The position numbers were made by a program, and so were the translations under genes. From Escherichia coli (GTDB taxonomy: Bacteria; Pseudomonadota; Gammaproteobacteria; Enterobacterales; Enterobacteriaceae), in NCBI RefSeq assembly GCF_048403405.1, contig NZ_CP183129.1: a stretch of DNA of 64,000 bases. The stretch is one strand, 5' to 3'. The notes beneath the pieces were generated by a model that searched no databases, was not told the origin of the DNA, and worked only from the letters and a program-made list of their open reading frames with translations. Position 1 is the first letter of the stretch. Each line of letters opens with the position of its first letter. Positions 11,754 to 58,595 of the stretch are shown here, piece after piece.

Positions 11754-12083
11754 ATGCTGATCTTCGAAGGTAAAGAGATAGAAACGGATACCGAAGGCTA
11801 TCTCAAAGAAAGCAGCCAGTGGAGTGAGCCGCTGGCAGTGGTGATTGCAGAGAACGAAGGGATTTCGCTGTCGCCAGAACACTGGGAAGTGGTGCGTTTT
11901 GTGCGTGATTTCTATCTGGAATTCAATACTTCTCCGGCGATTCGTATGCTGGTAAAAGCGATGGCGAATAAATTTGGCGAAGAAAAAGGTAACAGCCGCT
12001 ATTTATACCGACTGTTTCCGAAAGGTCCGGCTAAGCAAGCCACCAAAATTGCTGGCCTGCCAAAACCGGTAAAATGTATTTAA
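11754..12083 (+). CDS. tusE: Sulfur relay protein TusE
   Basis: ORF 11697..12083; the ATG at 11754 gives [32 protein letters not shown]... (109 aa), DsrC-like with C-terminal Cys. Confidence 0.9.
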
Positions 12084-13643: not shown

Positions 13644-14018
<375 letters not shown>

Positions 14019-14030
14019 TCCCTGAACAAA

Positions 14031-14067
14031 TCCCCGGAAGGTTTTGGCCTTCCGGGGATTTTTTATT
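14031..14067. terminator. Bidirectional Rho-independent terminator between convergent hspQ and yccU
   Basis: Hairpin tccccggaagg-ttttgg-ccttccgggga followed by ttttttatt; the yccU stop codon overlaps the T-tract. Confidence 0.7.
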
Positions 14068-14476
14068 TGGCCAGGCCCAGGCGAGGGATCTCAATAGCCG
14101 GGCAGCGATCCATCACTACATTTAATCCGGCATCCCGAGCCAGTACTGCCGCTTGCTCATTAATCACCCCCAGTTGCATCCAGAGGGTTTTCGCGCCGAT
14201 GGCGATCGCTTCCTGCGCTACGCCCCACGCCGCTTCTGAATTCCGGAAAACATCGACCATATCGACTTTTTCAGGAACTTCTGCCAGCGTGCCATACCCC
14301 TGCTGGCCCAGCAGCGTTTTGCCGGCAACTTTTGGTGAAACCGGAATGACGTGATACCCCTGGTCGAGTAGATATTTCATCACGCGATAGCTGGGACGAT
14401 CGGGTTTGTCGCTTGCCCCCACCAGCGCAATGGTGTGAGTGGACGTTAAAATGCCTGCAATATCGGTTTCTTTCAT
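14063..14476 (-). CDS. yccU: CoA-binding domain protein YccU
   Basis: ORF 14063..14557; the ATG at 14476 gives [37 protein letters not shown]... (137 aa). Confidence 0.88.
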
Positions 14477-15872: not shown

Positions 15873-15894
15873 CAGGTGGCAAACGCCACCTGTT
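15873..15894. terminator. Hairpin between convergent mgsA and helD (putative bidirectional terminator)
   Basis: acaggtggc-aaac-gccacctgt perfect stem immediately after the mgsA stop; weak T-run. Confidence 0.45.
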
Positions 15895-15896
15895 TC

Positions 15897-17951
15897 TTAC
15901 GGTTTTCTCGCCACCGGCACATCCAGATTTTTCAGTATTTCGACAAATGGAGAGGGATTCTCTTTGTTAAACAGTGCCCATACCCGATGGCGTGCCCGGG
16001 TCAGCGCCACGTACATTAACCGCCGTTCTTCAGCGTCCGGGAAATCCTCAACCGGTGGCAGTAGCGCCTCTTCCATAATCGACTCCCGCGCCGCAGCCGG
16101 AAAACCATCACTCCCCTCCTGCAAGCCAACGATGATGACGTAATCCGCCTGTTGCCCTTTGCTGGCATGAATGGTCATAAAGTCGATTTGCAACTTCGGC
16201 CAGCGTGTTGCCGCTTTTTCCAGGCTGGCAGGCCTCATGTGATGGTAACGCGCCAAGATCAGAATGCGCTCTTCCGGTTTGGCATAACCAGAGAGCTTAT
16301 CCAGCAAAGCGTCAAGATGGCTCTCATCCAATAACGTGACGGCTTTTTTGTCTCCATTGGTTAAGCTGTTTAGCGGCTTTTTCAGCTGGCCTGGGTTCTG
16401 CTGAATAAACCGGTTTGCCACCTCACCGATACGACTGTTAAAACGGTAAGTCGTGTCTAAATCACAGCGATCGCCTTCACCAAAGTTTTCATGGAAAGCG
16501 GTGGTGAGCGACATTTGCGCACCGCTGAAGCGATAAATCGCCTGCCAGTCATCACCAACGGCGAACAACGTCGTCTGACTGTTTTGCTTGCGTAATGCCG
16601 CTAACAACGCTGCGCGCTGCGGCGAGATATCCTGAAATTCATCAACCAGAATATGCTTCCACGGGCTGATAAAGCGACCTTTCTCCAGAATCACAATCGC
16701 CTGGTGAATAAGGCCCGAAAAATCGACAGCGTTTTCTGCCTTCAGCGCACCTTTCCAGGCTTTTAATAACGGAGCTATCAACTTGATACGTTTACTGAAC
16801 AGATCGCGAATCTCTTCGGGTGCACTGGCAATCATTTCTGCCTGTGCACCACCGTGCATCCGCATCAGACTTACCCAACGATCGAGGCGTGAGGCAAGAC
16901 GACGCTGTAATTTTTCATCATCCCAGAAGTTACCTTCTGGCACTGACCACTGCATTTCTTCCGTCAGCCATTGCCGCCAGCCCTTCGCCTGCGCTTTCTT
17001 TTCGCTGCATTGCTTGCGCCACTCAGCAATAAAGAGTTCATGACGGGCAGCGGTATCATTTTCCAGTTTGCTGACTATCGGAACTTTTTTGCTGCCCTGC
17101 TGAATAATATGCAGCGCCAGCGCATGAAACGTGCGTGCGGTAATGTCTTCGGTATGTAGCCGTTCGCGAATACGCTCGTCCATCTCTTCAGCGGCTTTGC
17201 GACCAAACGCTAGCAATAAAATTTGCTCAGGGGACGCTTCACCACGCGCCAGCAACCAGCCTGCACGGGCCACCAGCACCGACGTTTTTCCGCTTCCTGC
17301 ACCTGCCAGCACTAACAGAGAATGTTCGCCATTAACGACTGCCCGGGCCTGCGCCGGATTCAGCGGTGAAGACTCGACCTGGCGGAAAAAATCCGCATAC
17401 TCGGTAAGCATGGCTTCGGTATACGCCTGGTTATGCTGCAACCGAGCGCTTTCAATATCTTTCAACCAGGCCTGACATTTACGCCACGCCTCACGGCAGT
17501 TATCGAATTCTTCCAGTCGGTTAACCGGCAACGGCAACGCCGACAAAGCCTGGCGGATTTGTTGCTGAACGCCAGAGGTTTGCTCACGCGTCAGCCATTT
17601 ATTTTCTCCAGTGCGCGTGGCAATCAAATCCAGTTGCTGGCGTAAAACACCAGACGCAATTTCGCTCATCTCGCCACTCCACCGCCGCCAGTGAGCATCA
17701 AGATGATGGTAAAAACGCTGCGTCTCGCCCCATTCGGTACCGTGCAGACGCACCACTTTTTCGCCCGGCAGTACAAATTCCAGCTCGCCCCATACCAGAC
17801 CGCGCTTACAGTGAATCGCCAGTAATTGATTGAAAGGAATAAGGTATTCGTGGCGATCGCCGGAGACTTTAATCCCGGCATTGAGGATCACCGCCCGATC
17901 GTAAGGGTGCTGTGCCAGACGTTTTCCAAGCGTTGTCGCTTTCAGTTCCAT
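15897..17951 (-). CDS. helD: DNA helicase IV
   Basis: ORF 15897..18044; the ATG at 17951 gives MELKATTLGKRLAQHPYDRAVILNAG... (684 aa); Walker A motif GAGSGKT present. Confidence 0.93.
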   Translation of the reverse strand: MELKATTLGKRLAQHPYDRAVILNAGIKVSGDRHEYLIPFNQLLAIHCKRGLVWGELEFVLPGEKVVRLHGTEWGETQRFYHHLDAHWRRWSGEMSEIASGVLRQQLDLIATRTGENKWLTREQTSGVQQQIRQALSALPLPVNRLEEFDNCREAWRKCQAWLKDIESARLQHNQAYTEAMLTEYADFFRQVESSPLNPAQARAVVNGEHSLLVLAGAGSGKTSVLVARAGWLLARGEASPEQILLLAFGRKAAEEMDERIRERLHTEDITARTFHALALHIIQQGSKKVPIVSKLENDTAARHELFIAEWRKQCSEKKAQAKGWRQWLTEEMQWSVPEGNFWDDEKLQRRLASRLDRWVSLMRMHGGAQAEMIASAPEEIRDLFSKRIKLIAPLLKAWKGALKAENAVDFSGLIHQAIVILEKGRFISPWKHILVDEFQDISPQRAALLAALRKQNSQTTLFAVGDDWQAIYRFSGAQMSLTTAFHENFGEGDRCDLDTTYRFNSRIGEVANRFIQQNPGQLKKPLNSLTNGDKKAVTLLDESHLDALLDKLSGYAKPEERILILARYHHMRPASLEKAATRWPKLQIDFMTIHASKGQQADYVIIVGLQEGSDGFPAAARESIMEEALLPPVEDFPDAEERRLMYVALTRARHRVWALFNKENPSPFVEILKNLDVPVARKP

Positions 17952-18529: not shown

Positions 18530-20692
18530 ATGGCCTTTATGCTAAGTCCTTTGCTCAAACGCTATACCTGGAACAGCGCCTGGCTGTATTACGCGCGTAT
18601 TTTTATTGCGCTTTGTGGAACCACAGCGTTTCCGTGGTGGCTGGGTGATGTAAAACTGACGATTCCGCTGACGCTGGGGATGGTGGCAGCGGCGCTGACC
18701 GATCTCGATGACCGGCTGGCGGGACGTTTGCGTAACCTCATCATTACGCTGTTCTGCTTTTTTATCGCCTCGGCCTCAGTAGAACTGCTGTTTCCCTGGC
18801 CCTGGCTATTTGCGATTGGCTTAACGCTCTCAACCAGCGGCTTCATTTTGCTCGGCGGTCTGGGTCAACGCTATGCAACAATTGCTTTCGGTGCATTGCT
18901 GATCGCCATTTACACTATGTTGGGAACATCACTGTATGAGCACTGGTATCAGCAGCCGATGTATCTTCTGGCCGGTGCCGTCTGGTACAACGTCCTGACA
19001 CTTATTGGTCATCTGCTTTTCCCGGTCCGCCCGCTGCAGGATAACCTGGCGCGTTGCTATGAACAACTGGCGCGTTACCTTGAGCTCAAGTCGCGCATGT
19101 TTGATCCTGATATTGAAGATGAAAGCCAGGCACCGCTGTACGATTTGGCTCTCGCCAACGGTCAGCTGATGGCGACATTGAATCAGACGAAACTCTCGCT
19201 GCTGACCCGCTTACGTGGCGATCGTGGTCAACGGGGAACGCGTCGCACGCTGCATTATTACTTCGTCGCGCAGGATATTCACGAGCGTGCCAGCTCTTCT
19301 CATATTCAGTATCAAACATTGCGTGAACATTTTCGCCACAGCGACGTGCTGTTCCGTTTTCAGCGGCTGATGTCGATGCAGGGCCAGGCGTGCCAGCAAC
19401 TGTCACGCTGTATTTTGTTGCGTCAGCCTTATCAACATGATCCGCATTTCGAGCGCGCTTTTACGCATATTGATGCTGCGCTGGAGCGGATGCGCGATAA
19501 CGGCGCACCTGCCGATTTACTCAAAACACTGGGATTTTTGCTGAACAATTTACGCGCCATTGATGCCCAACTGGCAACAATTGAATCAGAACAGGCCCAG
19601 GCACTGCCCCATAATAATGACGAAAATGAGCTCGCTGATGACAGCCCGCACGGATTGAGTGATATCTGGCTGCGTCTTAGCCGTCACTTCACGCCGGAAT
19701 CCGCCCTCTTCCGTCATGCGGTAAGAATGTCGCTGGTGTTGTGCTTCGGCTACGCCATCATTCAGATAACCGGAATGCATCACGGGTATTGGATCTTGCT
19801 GACAAGTTTGTTTGTCTGCCAGCCAAACTATAACGCCACGCGCCACCGCCTGAAGTTAAGGATTATTGGTACGCTGGTAGGTATCGCCATTGGCATTCCT
19901 GTGCTGTGGTTTGTACCGTCACTGGAAGGGCAACTTGTGCTACTGGTTATTACCGGCGTGCTCTTTTTTGCCTTCCGTAACGTGCAATACGCCCATGCAA
20001 CGATGTTCATCACACTTTTGGTGCTACTTTGTTTTAACTTGCTGGGTGAAGGTTTTGAAGTGGCGTTACCTCGCGTAATCGATACGCTGATTGGTTGTGC
20101 CATTGCGTGGGCGGCGGTGAGCTACATCTGGCCTGACTGGAAGTTTCGCAATCTGCCGCGAATGCTCGAACGCGCCACAGAGGCCAACTGTCGGTATCTC
20201 GATGCCATACTGGAACAATACCATCAGGGGCGTGATAACCGTCTGGCGTATCGTATTGCCCGCCGCGATGCACACAACCGTGATGCTGAACTGGCGTCGG
20301 TGGTATCAAATATGTCCAGCGAACCGAACGTTACCCCGCAAATTCGCGAAGCCGCGTTTCGGTTGCTGTGCCTTAACCATACGTTTACCAGCTATATCTC
20401 AGCCCTCGGTGCTCACCGGGAGCAGTTAACTAATCCTGAAATTCTGGCGTTTCTTGATGACGCCGTTTGCTATGTTGATGACGCGCTACATCATCAACCT
20501 GCTGATGAAGAACGCGTCAATCAGGCATTAGCTGGCCTGAAACAGCGGATGCAGCAACTTGAACCTCGGGCAGACAGCAAAGAACCTCTGGTCGTACAAC
20601 AAGTTGGGTTATTGATTGCATTACTGCCAGAGATTGGTCGTCTGCAACGCCAGATTACTCAAGTTCCGCAGGAAACTCCTGTTTCGGCGTAA
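18530..20692 (+). CDS. yccS: Inner-membrane protein YccS (YccS/YhfK family)
   Basis: ORF of 720 aa; the true start may be the internal Met at 18539 (MLSPLLKRYTWNSAWLYYARIF...). Multi-TM N-terminal domain. Confidence 0.88.
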   Translation: MAFMLSPLLKRYTWNSAWLYYARIFIALCGTTAFPWWLGDVKLTIPLTLGMVAAALTDLDDRLAGRLRNLIITLFCFFIASASVELLFPWPWLFAIGLTLSTSGFILLGGLGQRYATIAFGALLIAIYTMLGTSLYEHWYQQPMYLLAGAVWYNVLTLIGHLLFPVRPLQDNLARCYEQLARYLELKSRMFDPDIEDESQAPLYDLALANGQLMATLNQTKLSLLTRLRGDRGQRGTRRTLHYYFVAQDIHERASSSHIQYQTLREHFRHSDVLFRFQRLMSMQGQACQQLSRCILLRQPYQHDPHFERAFTHIDAALERMRDNGAPADLLKTLGFLLNNLRAIDAQLATIESEQAQALPHNNDENELADDSPHGLSDIWLRLSRHFTPESALFRHAVRMSLVLCFGYAIIQITGMHHGYWILLTSLFVCQPNYNATRHRLKLRIIGTLVGIAIGIPVLWFVPSLEGQLVLLVITGVLFFAFRNVQYAHATMFITLLVLLCFNLLGEGFEVALPRVIDTLIGCAIAWAAVSYIWPDWKFRNLPRMLERATEANCRYLDAILEQYHQGRDNRLAYRIARRDAHNRDAELASVVSNMSSEPNVTPQIREAAFRLLCLNHTFTSYISALGAHREQLTNPEILAFLDDAVCYVDDALHHQPADEERVNQALAGLKQRMQQLEPRADSKEPLVVQQVGLLIALLPEIGRLQRQITQVPQETPVSA

Positions 20693-22368: not shown

Positions 22369-23421
22369 ATGAAAAAGACAGCTATCGCGATTGCAGTGGC
22401 ACTGGCTGGTTTCGCTACCGTAGCGCAGGCCGCTCCGAAAGATAACACCTGGTACACTGGTGCTAAACTGGGCTGGTCCCAGTACCATGACACTGGTTTT
22501 ATTCCTAACAATGGTCCGACCCACGAAAACCAACTGGGTGCAGGTGCTTTTGGTGGTTACCAGGTTAACCCGTATGTTGGCTTTGAAATGGGTTACGACT
22601 GGTTAGGTCGTATGCCGTACAAAGGCGACAACATCAACGGCGCATACAAAGCTCAGGGCGTTCAGCTGACCGCTAAACTGGGTTACCCAATCACTGACGA
22701 TCTGGACATCTACACTCGTCTGGGTGGTATGGTATGGCGTGCAGACACCAAGGCTAACGTACCTGGTGGCGCATCTTTTAAAGACCACGATACCGGCGTT
22801 TCTCCGGTCTTCGCTGGCGGTGTTGAGTATGCGATCACTCCTGAAATCGCTACCCGTCTGGAATACCAGTGGACCAACAACATCGGTGACGCACACACCA
22901 TCGGTACTCGTCCGGACAACGGCATGCTGAGCCTGGGTGTTTCCTACCGTTTCGGTCAGGGCGAAGCAGCTCCAGTAGTTGCTCCGGCTCCAGCTCCGGC
23001 ACCGGAAGTACAGACCAAGCACTTCACTCTGAAGTCTGACGTTCTGTTCACCTTCAACAAAGCAACCCTGAAACCGGAAGGTCAGGCTGCTCTGGATCAG
23101 CTGTACAGCCAGCTGAGCAACCTGGATCCGAAAGACGGTTCCGTAGTTGTTCTGGGTTACACCGACCGCATCGGTTCTGACGCTTACAACCAGGGTCTGT
23201 CCGAGCGCCGTGCTCAGTCTGTTGTTGATTACCTGATCTCTAAAGGTATCCCGGCAGACAAAATCTCCGCACGTGGTATGGGCGAATCCAACCCGGTTAC
23301 TGGCAACACCTGTGACAACGTGAAACAGCGTGCTGCACTGATCGACTGCCTGGCTCCGGATCGTCGCGTAGAGATCGAAGTTAAAGGCATCAAAGACGTT
23401 GTAACTCAGCCGCAGGCTTAA
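22369..23421 (+). CDS. ompA: Outer membrane protein A (350 aa allele with variant loop sequences)
   Basis: ORF 22297..23421 (GTG start in track); the ATG at 22369 gives [44 protein letters not shown]...; Ala-Pro hinge [10 protein letters not shown] and C-terminal OmpA-like peptidoglycan-binding domain. Confidence 0.96.
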
Positions 23422-23434
23422 GTTCTCGTCTGGT

Positions 23435-23464
23435 AAAAACCCCGCTGCTGCGGGGTTTTTTTTC
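23435..23464 (+). terminator. ompA Rho-independent terminator
   Basis: aaaaaccccgc-tgctg-cggggttttttttt hairpin plus T-tract directly after the ompA stop. Confidence 0.8.
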
Positions 23465-23495
23465 GTCTATAGAAAATTGAACTGACTTTCGTCAG

Positions 23496-23948
23496 TTATT
23501 CCTTACCCAGCAATGCCTGCAGATCCTGCTTCAAAGAAGACATTTTATTCGCGTATTTCTCTTTGTTTTCCGCATCTTCAATCAGCTGAACAATCGTTTC
23601 AGAAAGCGTTTTACCGCGACGCTGCGCAAGACCAGCCAGACGTTGCCAGACAATAAATTCCAGATCGATCGATTTTTTGCGCGTATGCTGGTGTTCCGCA
23701 TTAAAATGGCGCTTCCGTCTGGCCCGAATGGTTTGCTTCATGCGATTGACCAGTTCCGGATTCATATGCTTGTCAATCCAGCCATTTACCAGCACGGGTT
23801 CATTTTCCAGCGAGAGCAACACATCGACGGCTTCCTGGGCGGCACTGGCTTCTATGTAACGGGTGATTAACTCCCCTTCGCGATGCTTCTTCACCAGATA
23901 CTTCCATTTCCAACCGCTTTCAAGATTTTCAAGTTGTTGATATTTCAT
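23496..23948 (-). CDS. matP: Ter macrodomain organiser MatP
   Basis: 150 aa, [66 protein letters not shown]... Confidence 0.93.
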
Positions 23949-25962: not shown

Positions 25963-26481
25963 ATGGTAGATAAACGCGAATCCTATACAAAAGAAGACCT
26001 TCTTGCCTCTGGTCGCGGTGAACTGTTTGGCGCTAAAGGTCCGCAATTGCCAGCACCGAACATGCTGATGATGGACCGTGTGGTCAAAATGACCGAAACG
26101 GGTGGTAACTTCGACAAAGGGTATGTTGAAGCAGAACTGGATATCAATCCGGATCTGTGGTTCTTCGGATGCCACTTCATTGGTGATCCGGTTATGCCAG
26201 GATGTCTGGGCCTGGACGCAATGTGGCAGCTGGTAGGGTTCTACCTCGGCTGGCTGGGCGGCGAAGGTAAAGGCCGCGCGCTGGGCGTTGGCGAAGTGAA
26301 ATTCACTGGTCAGGTACTGCCGACAGCGAAAAAAGTGACCTACCGTATTCACTTTAAACGCATTGTTAACCGTCGTCTGATTATGGGCCTGGCGGATGGC
26401 GAAGTGCTGGTTGATGGTCGTCTGATCTATACCGCCAGCGACCTGAAAGTCGGTCTGTTCCAGGATACGTCTGCCTTCTGA
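25963..26481 (+). CDS. fabA: 3-hydroxydecanoyl-ACP dehydratase/isomerase FabA
   Basis: ORF 25765..26481; the ATG at 25963 gives [45 protein letters not shown]... (172 aa). Confidence 0.96.
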
Positions 26482-26510
26482 TTATAATCAGACAGAGTAT
26501 CAAAAGGCGA

Positions 26511-26538
26511 AACCTCCGCAATGCGGAGGTTTCTTTTT
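26511..26538. terminator. Rho-independent terminator after fabA (between convergent fabA and rmf)
   Basis: aacctccgca-atgcggaggtt hairpin followed by tctttttaa. Confidence 0.7.
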
Positions 26539-26550
26539 AAAGAGACAGAA

Positions 26551-26718
26551 TCAGGCCATTACTACCCTGTCCGCCATGGCTTCTCGCCAGCCTCCCAGCC
26601 ATTGTGACCTTTGATTCAGCGTCTGATAGGGACACATTTCTTTTGAGCGTCCGGCGATGCCGGCCTGATAACCACGTTGATGTGCCCGTTCCAGGCGATC
26701 TCGTTTTTGTCTCTTCAT
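26551..26718 (-). CDS. rmf: Ribosome modulation factor (55 aa)
   Basis: Hand-translated minus-strand ORF: MKRQKRDRLERAHQRGYQAGIAGRSKEMCPYQTLNQRSQWLGGWREAMADRVVMA; absent from the ORF track (below cutoff). The track ORF 26537..26734 is in a different frame. Confidence 0.9.
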   Translation of the reverse strand: MKRQKRDRLERAHQRGYQAGIAGRSKEMCPYQTLNQRSQWLGGWREAMADRVVMA

Positions 26719-48391: not shown

Positions 48392-49155
48392 ATACTGCTC
48401 GTCTGAACCAGGGCACACCATTGTTGCTCAATGCAGTAAGCAAACATTACGCGGAAAATATCGTCCTGAACCAACTGGATTTACATATTCCGGCTGGTCA
48501 GTTTGTGGCGGTGGTGGGCCGCAGCGGTGGTGGCAAAAGTACCCTGCTGCGCCTGCTGGCAGGTCTGGAAACGCCAACCGCTGGCGATGTGTTAGCGGGC
48601 ACCACACCGCTGGCTGAAATTCAGGAAGACACGCGAATGATGTTTCAGGATGCGCGTCTGCTGCCGTGGAAATCGGTGATTGATAACGTTGGGTTAGGCC
48701 TTAAAGGCCAGTGGCGCGATGCCGCGCGTCGGGCGTTGGCTGCAGTAGGACTGGAGAATCGCGCAGGGGAATGGCCTGCCGCACTTTCAGGCGGGCAGAA
48801 ACAGCGAGTGGCGCTGGCAAGAGCGTTGATTCATCGACCGGGTTTATTGTTGCTTGATGAACCGCTCGGGGCGCTGGACGCCCTGACGCGACTCGAGATG
48901 CAGGATTTGATTGTGTCACTTTGGCAGGAGCACGGCTTTACCGTACTGTTGGTGACGCATGATGTTAGCGAAGCGGTGGCAATGGCTGACCGGGTGTTGT
49001 TAATTGAAGAGGGAAAAATTGGTCTGGATTTGACGGTGGATATCCCCCGTCCGCGCCGGTTAGGGTCGGTGCGATTAGCGGAGCTGGAAGCGGAAGTGTT
49101 GCAACGGGTGATGCAGCGTGGTGAATCTGAAACTCGCCTGAGAAAACAGGGGTAA
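48388..49155 (+). CDS. ssuB: Aliphatic sulfonate ABC transporter ATP-binding protein SsuB
   Basis: 255 aa with Walker [13 protein letters not shown] signature LSGGQKQRV and Walker B LLLDEP. Confidence 0.95.
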
Positions 49156-49159
49156 ATTC

Positions 49160-49198
49160 CCGAATGGCGGCGCTATTGCCGCCATTCGGTTATTTTTT
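49160..49198. terminator. Rho-independent terminator after ssuB (between convergent ssuB and pepN)
   Basis: ccgaatggcggc-gctatt-gccgccattcgg hairpin followed by ttatttttt; the pepN stop overlaps its 3' edge. Confidence 0.75.
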
Positions 49199-51809
49199 AA
49201 GCCAGTGCTTTAGTTATCTTCTCGTACAGATCGCCAGAGAGATTTTCCAGCCCTTTCAACTGTTCCAGCGCCGCGCGCATTTTCTCCTGACGTTTGGCAT
49301 CATAACGTTTCAGGCGAATCAGCGGCTCAATCAGGCGCGAAGCCACCTGCGGGTTACGGCTGTTGAGGTCGGTAAGCATTTCCACCAGGAACTGGTAACC
49401 GCTGCCATCTTCAGCATGGAACGCTGCCGGGTTGCTGCCCGCAAACGCGCCAATCAACGAACGAATACGGTTCGGGTTGCTCATGGTAAATGAGCGATGC
49501 TGCAACAGGCCACGCACCGTCTCCAGCACATTCGCCGCCGGGCTGGTGGCTTGCAGGATAAACCATTTATCCATCACCAGACCATCCTGATGCCACTTGT
49601 CGTCGTATTCCTGCATCAGCGCGTCACGGCAAGGCAGCTGTGCAGCAACCGCCGCAGAAAGCGCTGCCAGCGCATCGGTCATATTGTTTGCTTCATGGTA
49701 TTGCTTGCTCACCAGCACGTCAGCCAGATGCGTTTCACCAAAAGCAAGGAAGCGCAGGCAGGCATTACGCAGAGTGCGTTTTGCAATATCTTCATGCTCA
49801 ACACGGTACTCGCTCTGGTAATTCGCGTTGTAAATAGCCAGTAGCTCATCCGCCAGTTCAGTCGCCAGAGTACGAGTGAGTGCTTCGCGTACTTCAGCAA
49901 TAGCAATCGGGTCGATGATATCGAACAGTTCTGCCATTTCATTGACGGAAGGCAGCGTCAGGATTTCTGCCGCCAGTGCCGGATCAATCTTCTCATCAAG
50001 CAGTACCGCGCGGAAAGCATCAGCCACATGCACCGGCAGAGACAGCGGCTGCCCTTGCTGATGACGGGCGACGTTGAGCTTGATGTAGGTTGCCAGCAGG
50101 CTTTGCGCCGCATCCCAGCGGGAGAAATCATTACGCGCATGACGCATCAGGAAGGTCAGTTGCTGATCGCTCCACTTATATTCCAGTTTCACTGGCGCAG
50201 AGAATTCGCACAGCAGCGCAGGCACCGGCTGAAAGTAGACATTATCAAAGACAAAGGTCTGTTCCGCCTGGGTGACGTTCAGCACCGAATTCACCGGATG
50301 ACCGCCTTTCTGCAACGGGATCACTTTGCCTTCGTTGTCATACAGTTCGATGGCAAACGGAATATGCAGCGGCTGTTTTTCTGCCTGATCCGGCGTAGCA
50401 GGCGTGCGCTGGCTGATGGTCAGGGTGTACTGCTCGGTTTCCGGATTATAGTCGTCTTTGACGGTCACAACCGGCGTACCGGACTGGCTGTACCAACGGC
50501 GGAAATGAGAGAGATCGACATTCGACGCATCTTCCATCGCCTGAACAAAGTCGTCGCAGGTTGCCGCGCTGCCATCATGGCGCTCGAAATAGAGCTGCAT
50601 CCCTTTCTGGAAGTTTTCTTCGCCCAGCAGGGTGTGGATCATGCGAATCACTTCCGCGCCCTTCTCGTAAACGGTCAGGGTGTAGAAGTTGTTCATCTCA
50701 ATGACCATATCCGGGCGGATCGGGTGCGCCATCGGGCTGGCGTCTTCCGCAAACTGCAATCCGCGCATGGTGCGCACGTTGTTGATACGGTTTACCGCGC
50801 GAGAACCAAGGTCAGAGCTGAATTCCTGATCGCGGAAGACGGTTAAACCTTCTTTCAGGCTGAGCTGGAACCAGTCGCGGCAGGTCACACGGTTACCGGT
50901 CCAGTTGTGGAAATATTCGTGACCAATAACACGCTCAATATCGAGGTAATCTTTATCGGTGGCGGTGTCGGTACGGGCCAGCACATATTTGGAGTTAAAG
51001 ATATTCAGACCTTTATTCTCCATTGCGCCCATATTGAAGAAGTCCACCGCGACGATCATATAGATGTCGAGGTCATACTCCAGGCCGAAGCGTTCTTCAT
51101 CCCATTTCATGGAGTTTTTCAGCGAGGTCATCGCCCACGGCGCGCGGTCGAGGTTGCCGCGATCGACGTACAGCTCCAGCGCCACTTCGCGACCAGAACG
51201 CGTGGTGAAGGTGTCGCGCAGCACGTCGAAGTCGCCTGCAACCAGCGCAAACAGGTAGCACGGTTTAGGGAACGGGTCCTGCCACTGTACCCAGTGACGT
51301 CCGTTTTCCAGTTCGCCTTGCGCAACGCGGTTACCGTTGGAAAGCAGGAAGGGATATTTGGTTTTATCGGCAATAATTTTGGTGGTAAAACGCGCCAGTA
51401 CGTCCGGGCGGTCAAGATAATACGTAATATGGCGGAAACCTTCGGCTTCACACTGAGTGCAAAGCGCATCGCCTGACTGATAAAGCCCTTCCAGCGCGGT
51501 ATTCGTCGCCGGGCTAATTTTATTAACGATCTTAAGCGTAAAACGCTCCGGCAAATTACTGATGACCAGTGCGCCCTCTTCTTCTTTCCAGGCGGTCCAA
51601 GGCTCATCATTAATATGAACAGAAACCAGTTTAAGATCTTCGCCATCAAGACGAAGCGGAGCATCTGATGCACCATGACGGACAGCCTGGCTGACCGCGG
51701 TAACGACCGTCTTTTGCGCGTCCAGGTCAAAGGTCAAGTCAATATCAGTAATCTGGTAATCCGGCGCACGATAATCGTGACGGTATTTGGCTTGTGGCTG
51801 TTGAGTCAT
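49197..51809 (-). CDS. pepN: Aminopeptidase N
   Basis: 870 aa, MTQQPQAKYRHDYRAPDYQITDIDLTFDLDAQKT...; zinc motif HEYFHNWTGNRVT...E and GAMEN exopeptidase motif. Confidence 0.96.
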   Translation of the reverse strand: MTQQPQAKYRHDYRAPDYQITDIDLTFDLDAQKTVVTAVSQAVRHGASDAPLRLDGEDLKLVSVHINDEPWTAWKEEEGALVISNLPERFTLKIVNKISPATNTALEGLYQSGDALCTQCEAEGFRHITYYLDRPDVLARFTTKIIADKTKYPFLLSNGNRVAQGELENGRHWVQWQDPFPKPCYLFALVAGDFDVLRDTFTTRSGREVALELYVDRGNLDRAPWAMTSLKNSMKWDEERFGLEYDLDIYMIVAVDFFNMGAMENKGLNIFNSKYVLARTDTATDKDYLDIERVIGHEYFHNWTGNRVTCRDWFQLSLKEGLTVFRDQEFSSDLGSRAVNRINNVRTMRGLQFAEDASPMAHPIRPDMVIEMNNFYTLTVYEKGAEVIRMIHTLLGEENFQKGMQLYFERHDGSAATCDDFVQAMEDASNVDLSHFRRWYSQSGTPVVTVKDDYNPETEQYTLTISQRTPATPDQAEKQPLHIPFAIELYDNEGKVIPLQKGGHPVNSVLNVTQAEQTFVFDNVYFQPVPALLCEFSAPVKLEYKWSDQQLTFLMRHARNDFSRWDAAQSLLATYIKLNVARHQQGQPLSLPVHVADAFRAVLLDEKIDPALAAEILTLPSVNEMAELFDIIDPIAIAEVREALTRTLATELADELLAIYNANYQSEYRVEHEDIAKRTLRNACLRFLAFGETHLADVLVSKQYHEANNMTDALAALSAAVAAQLPCRDALMQEYDDKWHQDGLVMDKWFILQATSPAANVLETVRGLLQHRSFTMSNPNRIRSLIGAFAGSNPAAFHAEDGSGYQFLVEMLTDLNSRNPQVASRLIEPLIRLKRYDAKRQEKMRAALEQLKGLENLSGDLYEKITKALA

Positions 51810-54860: not shown

Positions 54861-54887
54861 GAGCCAGCGCCCGCTGGCTCTTTTTTT
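54861..54887 (+). terminator. asnS Rho-independent terminator
   Basis: gagccagcg-cc-cgctggctc followed by ttttttt. Confidence 0.8.
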
Positions 54888-55237
54888 ATCCTTTCTGTCA
54901 AGTTATCTGTTTGTTAAGTCAAGCAATCTATTTGCAACCCCACCATAACGATCATCCTGTTACGGAATATTACACTGCAACATTTGCGCACAAAAAATAA
55001 TCCGCATTCTTATTGCGGATTAGTTTTTTCTTAGCTGATAGCACAATTTTCATACTATTTTTTGGCGTTCTGGATGTCTGAACGAGGATTTAGTGCCAGG
55101 TCGATAAAGTTTCCATCAGAAACAAAATTTCCGTTTAGTTAATTTAAATATAAGGAAATCATATAAATAGATAAATATTGCTGTAAATATCATCACGCTT
55201 CTATGGAAATATGACGGTGTTCACAAAGTTCCTTAAA

Positions 55238-56706: not shown

Positions 56707-57897
56707 ATGTTTGAGAACATTACCGCCGCTCCTGCCGACCCGATTCTGGGCCTGGCCGATCTGTTTCGTGCCGATGAACGTCCCGGCAAAATTAACCTCG
56801 GGATTGGTGTCTATAAAGATGAGACGGGCAAAACCCCGGTACTGACCAGCGTGAAAAAGGCTGAACAGTATCTGCTCGAAAATGAAACCACCAAAAATTA
56901 CCTCGGCATTGACGGCATCCCTGAATTTGGTCGCTGCACTCAGGAACTGCTGTTTGGTAAAGGTAGCGCCCTGATCAATGACAAACGTGCTCGCACGGCA
57001 CAGACTCCGGGTGGCACTGGCGCACTACGCGTGGCTGCCGATTTCCTGGCAAAAAATACCAGCGTTAAGCGTGTGTGGGTGAGCAACCCAAGCTGGCCGA
57101 ACCATAAGAGCGTCTTTAACTCTGCAGGTCTGGAAGTTCGTGAATACGCTTATTATGATGCGGAAAATCACACCCTTGACTTCGATGCACTGATTAACAG
57201 CCTGAACGAAGCTCAGGCTGGCGACGTAGTGCTGTTCCATGGCTGCTGCCATAACCCAACCGGTATCGACCCTACGCTGGAACAGTGGCAGACACTGGCA
57301 CAACTTTCCGTTGAGAAAGGCTGGTTACCGCTGTTTGACTTCGCTTACCAGGGTTTTGCCCGTGGTCTGGAAGAAGATGCTGAAGGACTGCGCGCTTTCG
57401 CGGCTATGCATAAAGAGCTGATTGTTGCCAGTTCCTACTCTAAAAACTTTGGCCTGTACAACGAGCGTGTTGGCGCTTGTACTCTGGTTGCTGCTGACAG
57501 TGAAACCGTTGATCGCGCATTCAGCCAAATGAAAGCGGCGATTCGCGCTAACTACTCTAACCCACCAGCACACGGCGCTTCTGTTGTTGCCACCATCCTG
57601 AGCAACGATGCGTTACGTGCGATTTGGGAACAGGAGCTGACTGATATGCGCCAGCGTATTCAGCGTATGCGTCAGTTGTTCGTCAATACGCTGCAGGAAA
57701 AAGGCGCAAACCGCGACTTCAGCTTTATCATCAAACAGAACGGCATGTTCTCCTTCAGTGGTCTGACAAAAGAACAAGTGCTGCGTCTGCGCGAAGAGTT
57801 TGGCGTGTATGCTGTTGCTTCTGGTCGTGTGAACGTAGCCGGGATGACACCAGATAACATGGCTCCGCTGTGCGAAGCGATTGTGGCAGTGCTGTAA
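56707..57897 (+). CDS. aspC: Aspartate aminotransferase
   Basis: 396 aa, [49 protein letters not shown]...; PLP-lysine context SYSKNFGLY. Confidence 0.97.
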
Positions 57898-57912
57898 GCG
57901 TTAAACACAATG

Positions 57913-57940
57913 AAGCCCGCTTAAAAAGCGGGCTTTTTTA
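57913..57940. terminator. Rho-independent terminator after aspC (between convergent aspC and ycbL)
   Basis: aagcccgc-ttaaaaa-gcgggctt followed by tttta. Confidence 0.75.
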
Positions 57941-57947
57941 TGCGCCT

Positions 57948-58595
57948 TTACCAGACGGGCATTTCGTCTTGCAGGAAGGGATTATGCAGGCGCTCATAAC
58001 CAAGTGTGGATAATGGTCCGTGACCCGGAATAAATGTCACGTCATCCCCCAGTGGCAGCAACTTATCTTTGATTGAAGAAATCAGTTGATTATGATCGCC
58101 ACGCGGGAAGTCACTGCGCCCTACTCCGCCTTTGAAAATAACGTCGCCAGAAATCAGCAGCTTTGCCCGATCATCAAAAAACACGACATGACCCGGCGTA
58201 TGCCCAGGGCAATGTAACACCTGTAAAGCCACATTCCCTATGCTGATGGTATCGCCTTCGTTCAGCCAACGATCCGGCGTCAGCGGCTGGCACTCTTCCA
58301 GACCAAACATACGACTTTGCGCAGGCAAGCCTTGCAGCCAGAACTCATCTTCTTTTTCCGGGCCAAAAACCGGCACGCCGTAATGTTGCGCCAGTTCCGC
58401 CGCTGCACCAACGTGGTCCAGATGACCATGCGTCAGCAGGATCTGCATCAGTGTCAGGCCGCTGGCGTCAACTTCCTGTTTGATTTTTTCCGCATCGCCG
58501 CCAGGATCGACCAGTGCGGCCAGTCGGGTTTGTTCACACCAGATCAATGAACAGTTCTGGGAGAATGCGGTGACCGGAATAATACGATAGTTCAT
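57948..58595 (-). CDS. ycbL: Metallo-beta-lactamase-fold hydrolase YcbL (glyoxalase II-like)
   Basis: 215 aa, [34 protein letters not shown]...; HxHxDH metal-binding motif ([10 protein letters not shown]). Confidence 0.9.

Follow-up and report, generated by a model that had tools for sequence, protein, structure and literature searches.

Each of the six gaps of 31-74 nt between convergent genes in the window (the whole 64,000-nt stretch of E. coli DNA analysed here) holds one palindromic, GC-rich stem-loop, at which both transcription units very probably form their RNA 3' ends. This reading is favoured because of the structures themselves, their genomic context, their departure from randomness, the conservation of their layout and the 3' ends found on both strands in K-12. 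The experimental 3'-end data all come from K-12, whose aspC/gloC allele differs from that of the window strain; we infer the formation of the same ends in the window strain, as well as the share of intrinsic release, collision-assisted release and trimming to the hairpin on the weaker side. The observation made from the letters of the DNA is confirmed, and the six loci are already catalogued as bidirectional terminators: the K-12 equivalents of all six appear in the published list, in line with the shared two-way termination that had been suggested. As catalogued examples of a described class, they matter little for discovery. They illustrate that a sequence-only reading can spot two-way terminators, and that A/T-tract symmetry alone is no proof of two-way function.

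Hairpins between convergent genes

The window spans the E. coli chromosome from cspG to mukB, in reversed orientation relative to MG1655. A 2-kb query around the hspQ/yccU site is matched by 5,425 of 5,426 complete E. coli genomes. The gene coordinates (Table 1) were obtained via the annotation of strain 4621, which is 99.98-100% identical to the window, with one mismatch over positions 1-32000 and one mismatch plus three small indels over positions 32001-63993. Judged by this annotation, the gene names and orientations given in the sequence-only reading are correct (ycbL is now called gloC), and all five of its hairpins were found where it had placed them, each between the convergent genes that it had named. 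Its list of sites was incomplete, since a sixth hairpin of the same kind, between mgsA and helD (15873-15892), had been overlooked. The overlap with the yccU stop codon that it described is real: the T6 run at 14059-14064 reaches into codon 14063-14065.

Table 1. Convergent gene pairs of the window with a real gap, and the hairpins found in them (window positions)
Pair (+ strand gene / - strand gene)	Gap (nt)	Hairpin	Terminator or site	Structure and tail in the + direction	Tail in the - direction
hspQ 13701-14018 (+) / yccU 14063-14476 (-)	44	14028-14061	14028..14068 (terminator)	GC core 14031-14058 within the stem-loop; T6-A-T3 tract 14059-14068, overlapping yccU stop codon 14063-14065	UUUGUU, encoded at 14030-14025
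mgsA (+) / helD (-)	31	15873-15892	15873..15899 (site)	dG -14.4; TTTCTTA tail after the hairpin, overlapping helD stop codon 15897-15899	
ompA 22369-23421 (+) / matP 23496-23948 (-)	74	23435-23460	23435..23463 (terminator)	A5, then CCCCGC-TGCT-GCGGGG, then T8; tail U8	U5
fabA 25963-26481 (+) / rmf 26551-26718 (-)	69	26509-26533	26509..26538 (terminator)	11-bp stem GAAACCTCCGC/GCGGAGGTTTC, then T5	GCCUUUUG
ssuB 48388-49155 (+) / pepN 49197-51809 (-)	41	49160-49189	49160..49198 (site)	12-bp stem, dG -24, then TTATTTTTT into pepN stop codon 49197-49199	GAAUUUA, U-poor
aspC 56707-57897 (+) / gloC (= ycbL) 57948-58595 (-)	50	57913-57935	57913..57940 (terminator, compact allele)	AAGCCCGC-TTAAAAA-GCGGGCTT, then T6	UUCAUUGUGUUU

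The five hairpins listed in the sequence-only reading have an MFE of -18 to -28 kcal/mol and z of -4.2 to -6.3 on both strands, and an equally good fold was obtained in none of 200 shuffles. The core stems, with dG of -12 to -24 kcal/mol, are GC-rich stem-loops as expected of intrinsic terminators. Terminator prediction, one of the two checks proposed with the original observation, agrees: a simple scan ranks the five among its strongest hits. Across the window, 18 hairpins combine dG <= -10 with a U-rich tail, as compared to 0-4 in ten dinucleotide shuffles. The convergent gaps total 309 nt, for which chance would predict about 0.006 such hairpins; six were observed. The window contains ten convergent junctions, four with overlapping genes and six with a real gap, and one strong hairpin is present in each of the six gapped pairs. 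At the four overlapping pairs, namely cspH/appA (495-507), tusE/yccX (12080-12083), yccS/sxy (20655-20692) and ycbX/zapC (35939-35942), an intergenic hairpin is absent. None of the six sites matches an Rfam family; in the window, the Rfam matches are limited to the PyrD leader at 37660-37733 (-) and tRNA-Ser at 10710-10794 (+).

The published K-12 ends of tusE (1030247-52) and yccS (1021675) sit within the opposing gene. Another of the overlapping pairs, cspH (295-507) and appA (495-1805), is convergent in the window with an overlap of 13 nt. On the K-12 map, an etk-gfc segment presumably separates appA from cspH. The published table of bidirectional terminators places an MG1655 terminator between appA and etk (row #76), and the window strain therefore appears to be without the etk-gfc segment. 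The ompA/matP gap holds a second, weak hairpin at 23480-23497 (AACTGACTTTCGTCAGTT) that overlaps the matP stop codon and has a terminator-like score on the - strand; the published matP ends fall after the ompA hairpin, not at this one.

Since any palindrome folds on both strands by construction, the tail is the informative feature. The flanking A/T tracts claimed from the sequence are present on the T side at all sites and on the A side only in part: only ompA/matP has a strong A side (A5), hspQ/yccU and fabA/rmf have moderate ones, and those of ssuB/pepN and aspC/gloC are poor. The + strand U-tract is canonical at all six sites (hspQ, mgsA, ompA, fabA, ssuB and aspC), with tail scores of 3.0-5.4. 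The - strand tails are graded. That of matP is good (3.69), that of yccU good to borderline (1.9-3.2, varying with stem trimming) and that of gloC moderate or borderline (2.5), whereas rmf (0.74) is moderate to poor and pepN (0.55) and helD (1.1) are poor. The U-tracts of these last three are imperfect or missing, with scores of 0.55-1.1 as compared to 3.3-5.4 on the + strand. A comparison of the convergent with the co-directional terminators of the window, small in number, revealed no enrichment of A-tracts, and the symmetry is equal at three of six co-directional terminators (serT, ompF and mukB). According to the literature, A-tracts are common to intrinsic terminators in general, and sequence symmetry is therefore no evidence for two-way function.

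The asnS-ompF intergenic region has a symmetric hairpin at 54998-55022 with T-runs on either side. A K-12 3' end reported by TRS at 987571-9, on the strand opposite to asnS and ompF, adjoins the asnS terminator (window 54861-54880). This terminator at a co-directional junction thus seems also to halt an antisense RNA.

Published 3' ends in K-12 and how they may form

Except at aspC/gloC, the gaps of the window match those of MG1655 exactly or almost exactly; one loop base differs at hspQ/yccU, and small indels are present at ompA/matP and ssuB/pepN. Ju, Li & Liu (2019) described overlapping bidirectional terminators by SEnd-seq. The class has been described as prevalent between convergent E. 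coli genes, and the window sites coincide with members of it in locus, convergent gap and single stem-loop, with no substantive difference other than the allele differences from K-12. The published table, reproduced in a 2026 preprint supplement, comprises 306 bidirectional terminators among 704 convergent E. coli pairs. It lists aspC/ycbL as row #69, ssuB/pepN as #71, fabA/rmf as #72, ompA/matP as #73, mgsA/helD as #74 (1026524-1026554) and hspQ/yccU as #75 (1028357-1028396, 40 nt). These rows (#69 and #71-75) were detected in both log and stationary phase, and the opposing 3' ends overlap by 29-40 nt.

Mapping of 3' ends, the second check proposed, can be read from K-12 maps. In these, hspQ/yccU, ompA/matP, fabA/rmf and the aspC hairpin all have RNA ends on either strand; the TRS termini of the first three pairs are primary ones. 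TRS (Nat Commun 2023) gives the hspQ end at 1028357-9 and the yccU end at 1028396. Projected on the window by the identical gap length, these would fall at 14063-14065, in the yccU stop codon, and at about 14026, with an overlap of 40 nt. The ompA ends lie at 1018964-77 (TRS, 1018964-8, and for ompA also curated Term-seq) and those of matP at 1018999-1019002 (TRS). For fabA and rmf, TRS reports 1015892 and 1015929, and the curated Term-seq data of Adams et al. (2021) place one end on each strand, 1015897(-) and 1015926/7(+). The latter data also give ends for mgsA, ompA and aspC. The mgsA end is at 1026524/5 (Term-seq; TRS 1026524), the pepN end at 993275-8, on the U-poor side (Term-seq 993275; TRS 993276-8), and the aspC hairpin has ends at 984476-9(-) and 984507-9(+) (TRS 984476 and 984507-9). 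Curated Term-seq lacks ends for matP and helD and has nothing in the hspQ/yccU gap, so detection evidently varies with the method and the expression level. By itself, the blank at hspQ/yccU would have spoken against that site, but TRS and SEnd-seq both detect opposing ends there. The same curated data contain BCM-sensitive (Rho) regions that closely follow almost all of the sites in the antisense direction, one of them antisense to ssuB at 993537. These regions indicate that the hairpins are leaky; they do not make the ends at the hairpins dependent on Rho.

In the favoured reading, each hairpin would serve its + strand gene as a Rho-independent terminator, the U-tract following directly and the RNA ending some 6-10 nt past the stem. 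The opposite strand would use the same hairpin with a weaker U-rich tail. Termination may be near-canonical where a U-tract exists, as on the matP and yccU sides. Because of the weaker tail, termination on the - strand should be less efficient overall, with readthrough presumably halted by Rho further downstream. On the pepN and helD sides, the hairpin is probably aided by Rho, by exonuclease trimming to the hairpin or by polymerase collisions. The paired mRNAs would overlap by 29-40 nt across the hairpin. Ends on the U-poor side (pepN, helD, and partly rmf and gloC) need not reflect true intrinsic termination, and steady-state 3' ends cannot tell termination from exonuclease trimming.

The sites resemble the intrinsic terminators modelled by TransTermHP, with its A-tail and T-tail, in that a GC-rich stem (6-15 bp) with a short loop (3-6 nt) follows closely on a stop codon and has a U-tract directly 3' of it; the A-tail/T-tail logic of two-way terminators, used in that program, speaks for the favoured reading. 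They differ from canonical intrinsic terminators on the - strand, where three or four of the six sites have a degenerate U-tract. Similar to the protective 3' stem-loops of Rho-dependent transcripts (Dar & Sorek 2018) are the pepN side and, with its U-less hairpin and downstream Rho region, the K-12 aspC side. Unlike those stem-loops, the window hairpin also provides the opposing gene with a canonical intrinsic terminator.

In a possible, though doubtful, alternative, the hairpins are one-way intrinsic terminators of the + strand genes; polymerases on the opposite strand read through them and are stopped by Rho further on, and the RNA is trimmed by 3'-5' exonucleases to a protective hairpin. 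It draws on the U-poor - strand tails of pepN, helD and rmf. The pepN end lies 2-5 nt past a stem that has no U-tract; 260 nt beyond it, antisense to ssuB, is a Rho region with a score of 5.8. Likewise, K-12 aspC RNA ends at a hairpin without a U-tract, with a Rho region antisense to gloC, and Dar & Sorek (2018) reported that Rho-dependent transcripts end at U-less stem-loops after trimming by PNPase or RNase II. The matP and yccU sides do not fit this scheme: both have usable U-tracts (U5 and UUUGUU), and their ends lie 5-10 nt past the stem, as expected of intrinsic release. Moreover, the tract on the yccU side is conserved in most other genera as a strong run of 5-8 A, read on the hspQ-sense strand.

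Rather less probable is a collision-driven mode, in which the hairpin mainly pauses polymerases, and head-on and rear-end collisions release them. The SEnd-seq authors propose it for the class, and their model terminator, ynaJ-uspE, turned out to be weak in one-way transcription and efficient under convergent transcription. At the window sites, however, canonical strong U-tracts on five of the six + strand sides need no collision. No ssuB end is present in TRS or Term-seq, where the gene is silent, and pepN RNA ends at the hairpin all the same. The two partners can also be expressed at very different levels, as are ompA and matP.

The hspQ/yccU hairpin across enterobacteria and its relation to REP elements

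HspQ-anchored loci were gathered from about 25 enterobacterial genera. Of the 80 loci, 77 have yccU convergent with hspQ, and the gaps measure 25-111 nt. In most genera the GC stem is short (of the CCCCGC, GCCCG or CACCCCGC types), preceded by 5-8 A and followed by 5-8 T that extend into the yccU stop; the stem of Escherichia is longer than in most genera. At least 28 of the 55 short-gap loci have strong tails on both sides; bulged hairpins of some genera were rescored by MFE folding, and a few loci were left unscored. An alignment with MAFFT and RNAalifold reveals compensatory swaps, with counts of CG 23 and GC 16 at one pair, and of CG 22, AU 5, GC 3 and UA 2 at another. The turnover of the sequence, with the layout of A-tract, GC stem and T-tract kept, argues for selection on function.

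One Escherichia lineage (L007:1516-1575, aligned with window 14016-14075) has the loop CAAAAA instead of TTTTTG, i.e., its reverse complement, which suggests a palindrome-mediated loop flip. The same lineage shows a compensatory change from C-G to A-U at the base of the stem.

A further idea is that the 40-nt, perfectly complementary 3' overlap couples hspQ and yccU post-transcriptionally, beyond the role of a space-saving terminator. The coupling could proceed via an RNA duplex cleaved by RNase III, or via a ribosome that halts at the yccU stop codon, which lies 1-4 nt away from the stem, and so modulates hairpin formation. The MG1655 annotation of YccU as a 'putative HspQ acetyl donor' fits the idea, and so does the retention of the pair with its squeezed shared hairpin in 77 of the 80 loci. 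Conserved synteny of functionally linked genes together with ordinary termination explains the hspQ/yccU data, and we consider such coupling very unlikely.

REP/BIME elements share several features with the window hairpins: they are palindromic and extragenic, they occur between convergent genes, and a two-way action has been proposed for them. In Citrobacter and Salmonella, REP-like palindromes occupy the hspQ/yccU gap in place of the hairpin, and at K-12 aspC/gloC a BIME accompanies the hairpin. In addition, row #75 of the published table flags 'REP88' over the hspQ/yccU hairpin, with an overlap of 23 nt. That the six hairpins are themselves copies of this dispersed palindromic repeat is nevertheless hardly credible. 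They are mutually unrelated, each is unique in the window, and none of the six sites carries the REP consensus. The hspQ/yccU hairpin is found at a median of two places per E. coli genome, which is one locus whose palindrome matches on both strands. The 'REP88' label looks like an over-inclusive annotation, because the sequence is present as a single copy and does not resemble the REP consensus. Membership of the six hairpins in the REP/BIME class was rejected: in place of many dispersed copies, a single locus per genome was found (hspQ/yccU).

As for chance palindromes, or protein-binding or cruciform DNA sites without any role at RNA 3' ends, the probability is negligible, for nothing specific supports them except that any perfect palindrome folds alike on both strands, and they are contradicted by the enrichment over shuffles, the placement in every gapped convergent pair and the compensatory stem changes with conserved U/A tracts, and refuted by the mapped RNA ends.

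The aspC/gloC alleles and other strain differences

At aspC/gloC, K-12 (MG1655 984298-984518, corresponding to the window gap 57898-57947) carries a 171-nt REP/BIME insert that splits the aspC terminator. Two REP-like palindromes directly follow the 3' arm of the hairpin and are flanked by an 11-nt direct repeat, AAAAGCGGGCT. The K-12 aspC hairpin is thereby left without a U-tract, the T6 run now coming after an orphan half-stem. Even so, this U-less hairpin remains the place where K-12 aspC RNA ends, and Rho regions flank it on either side. Of 5,426 E. coli genomes, 2,811 have the K-12 form, while the window carries the compact one. The compact (U6) and BIME-split versions constitute a natural allele pair that could be used for testing the effect of REP insertion on termination.

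The window also differs from strain 4621 in two homopolymer runs: C7 to C6 in ycbF (window 38272; K-12 also has C7) and C6 to C5 in elfC (window 40868). Both fimbrial genes are thereby frameshifted in the window, and these may be either real pseudogenes or homopolymer sequencing errors. Conversely, ompF is intact in the window and frameshifted in strain 4621.
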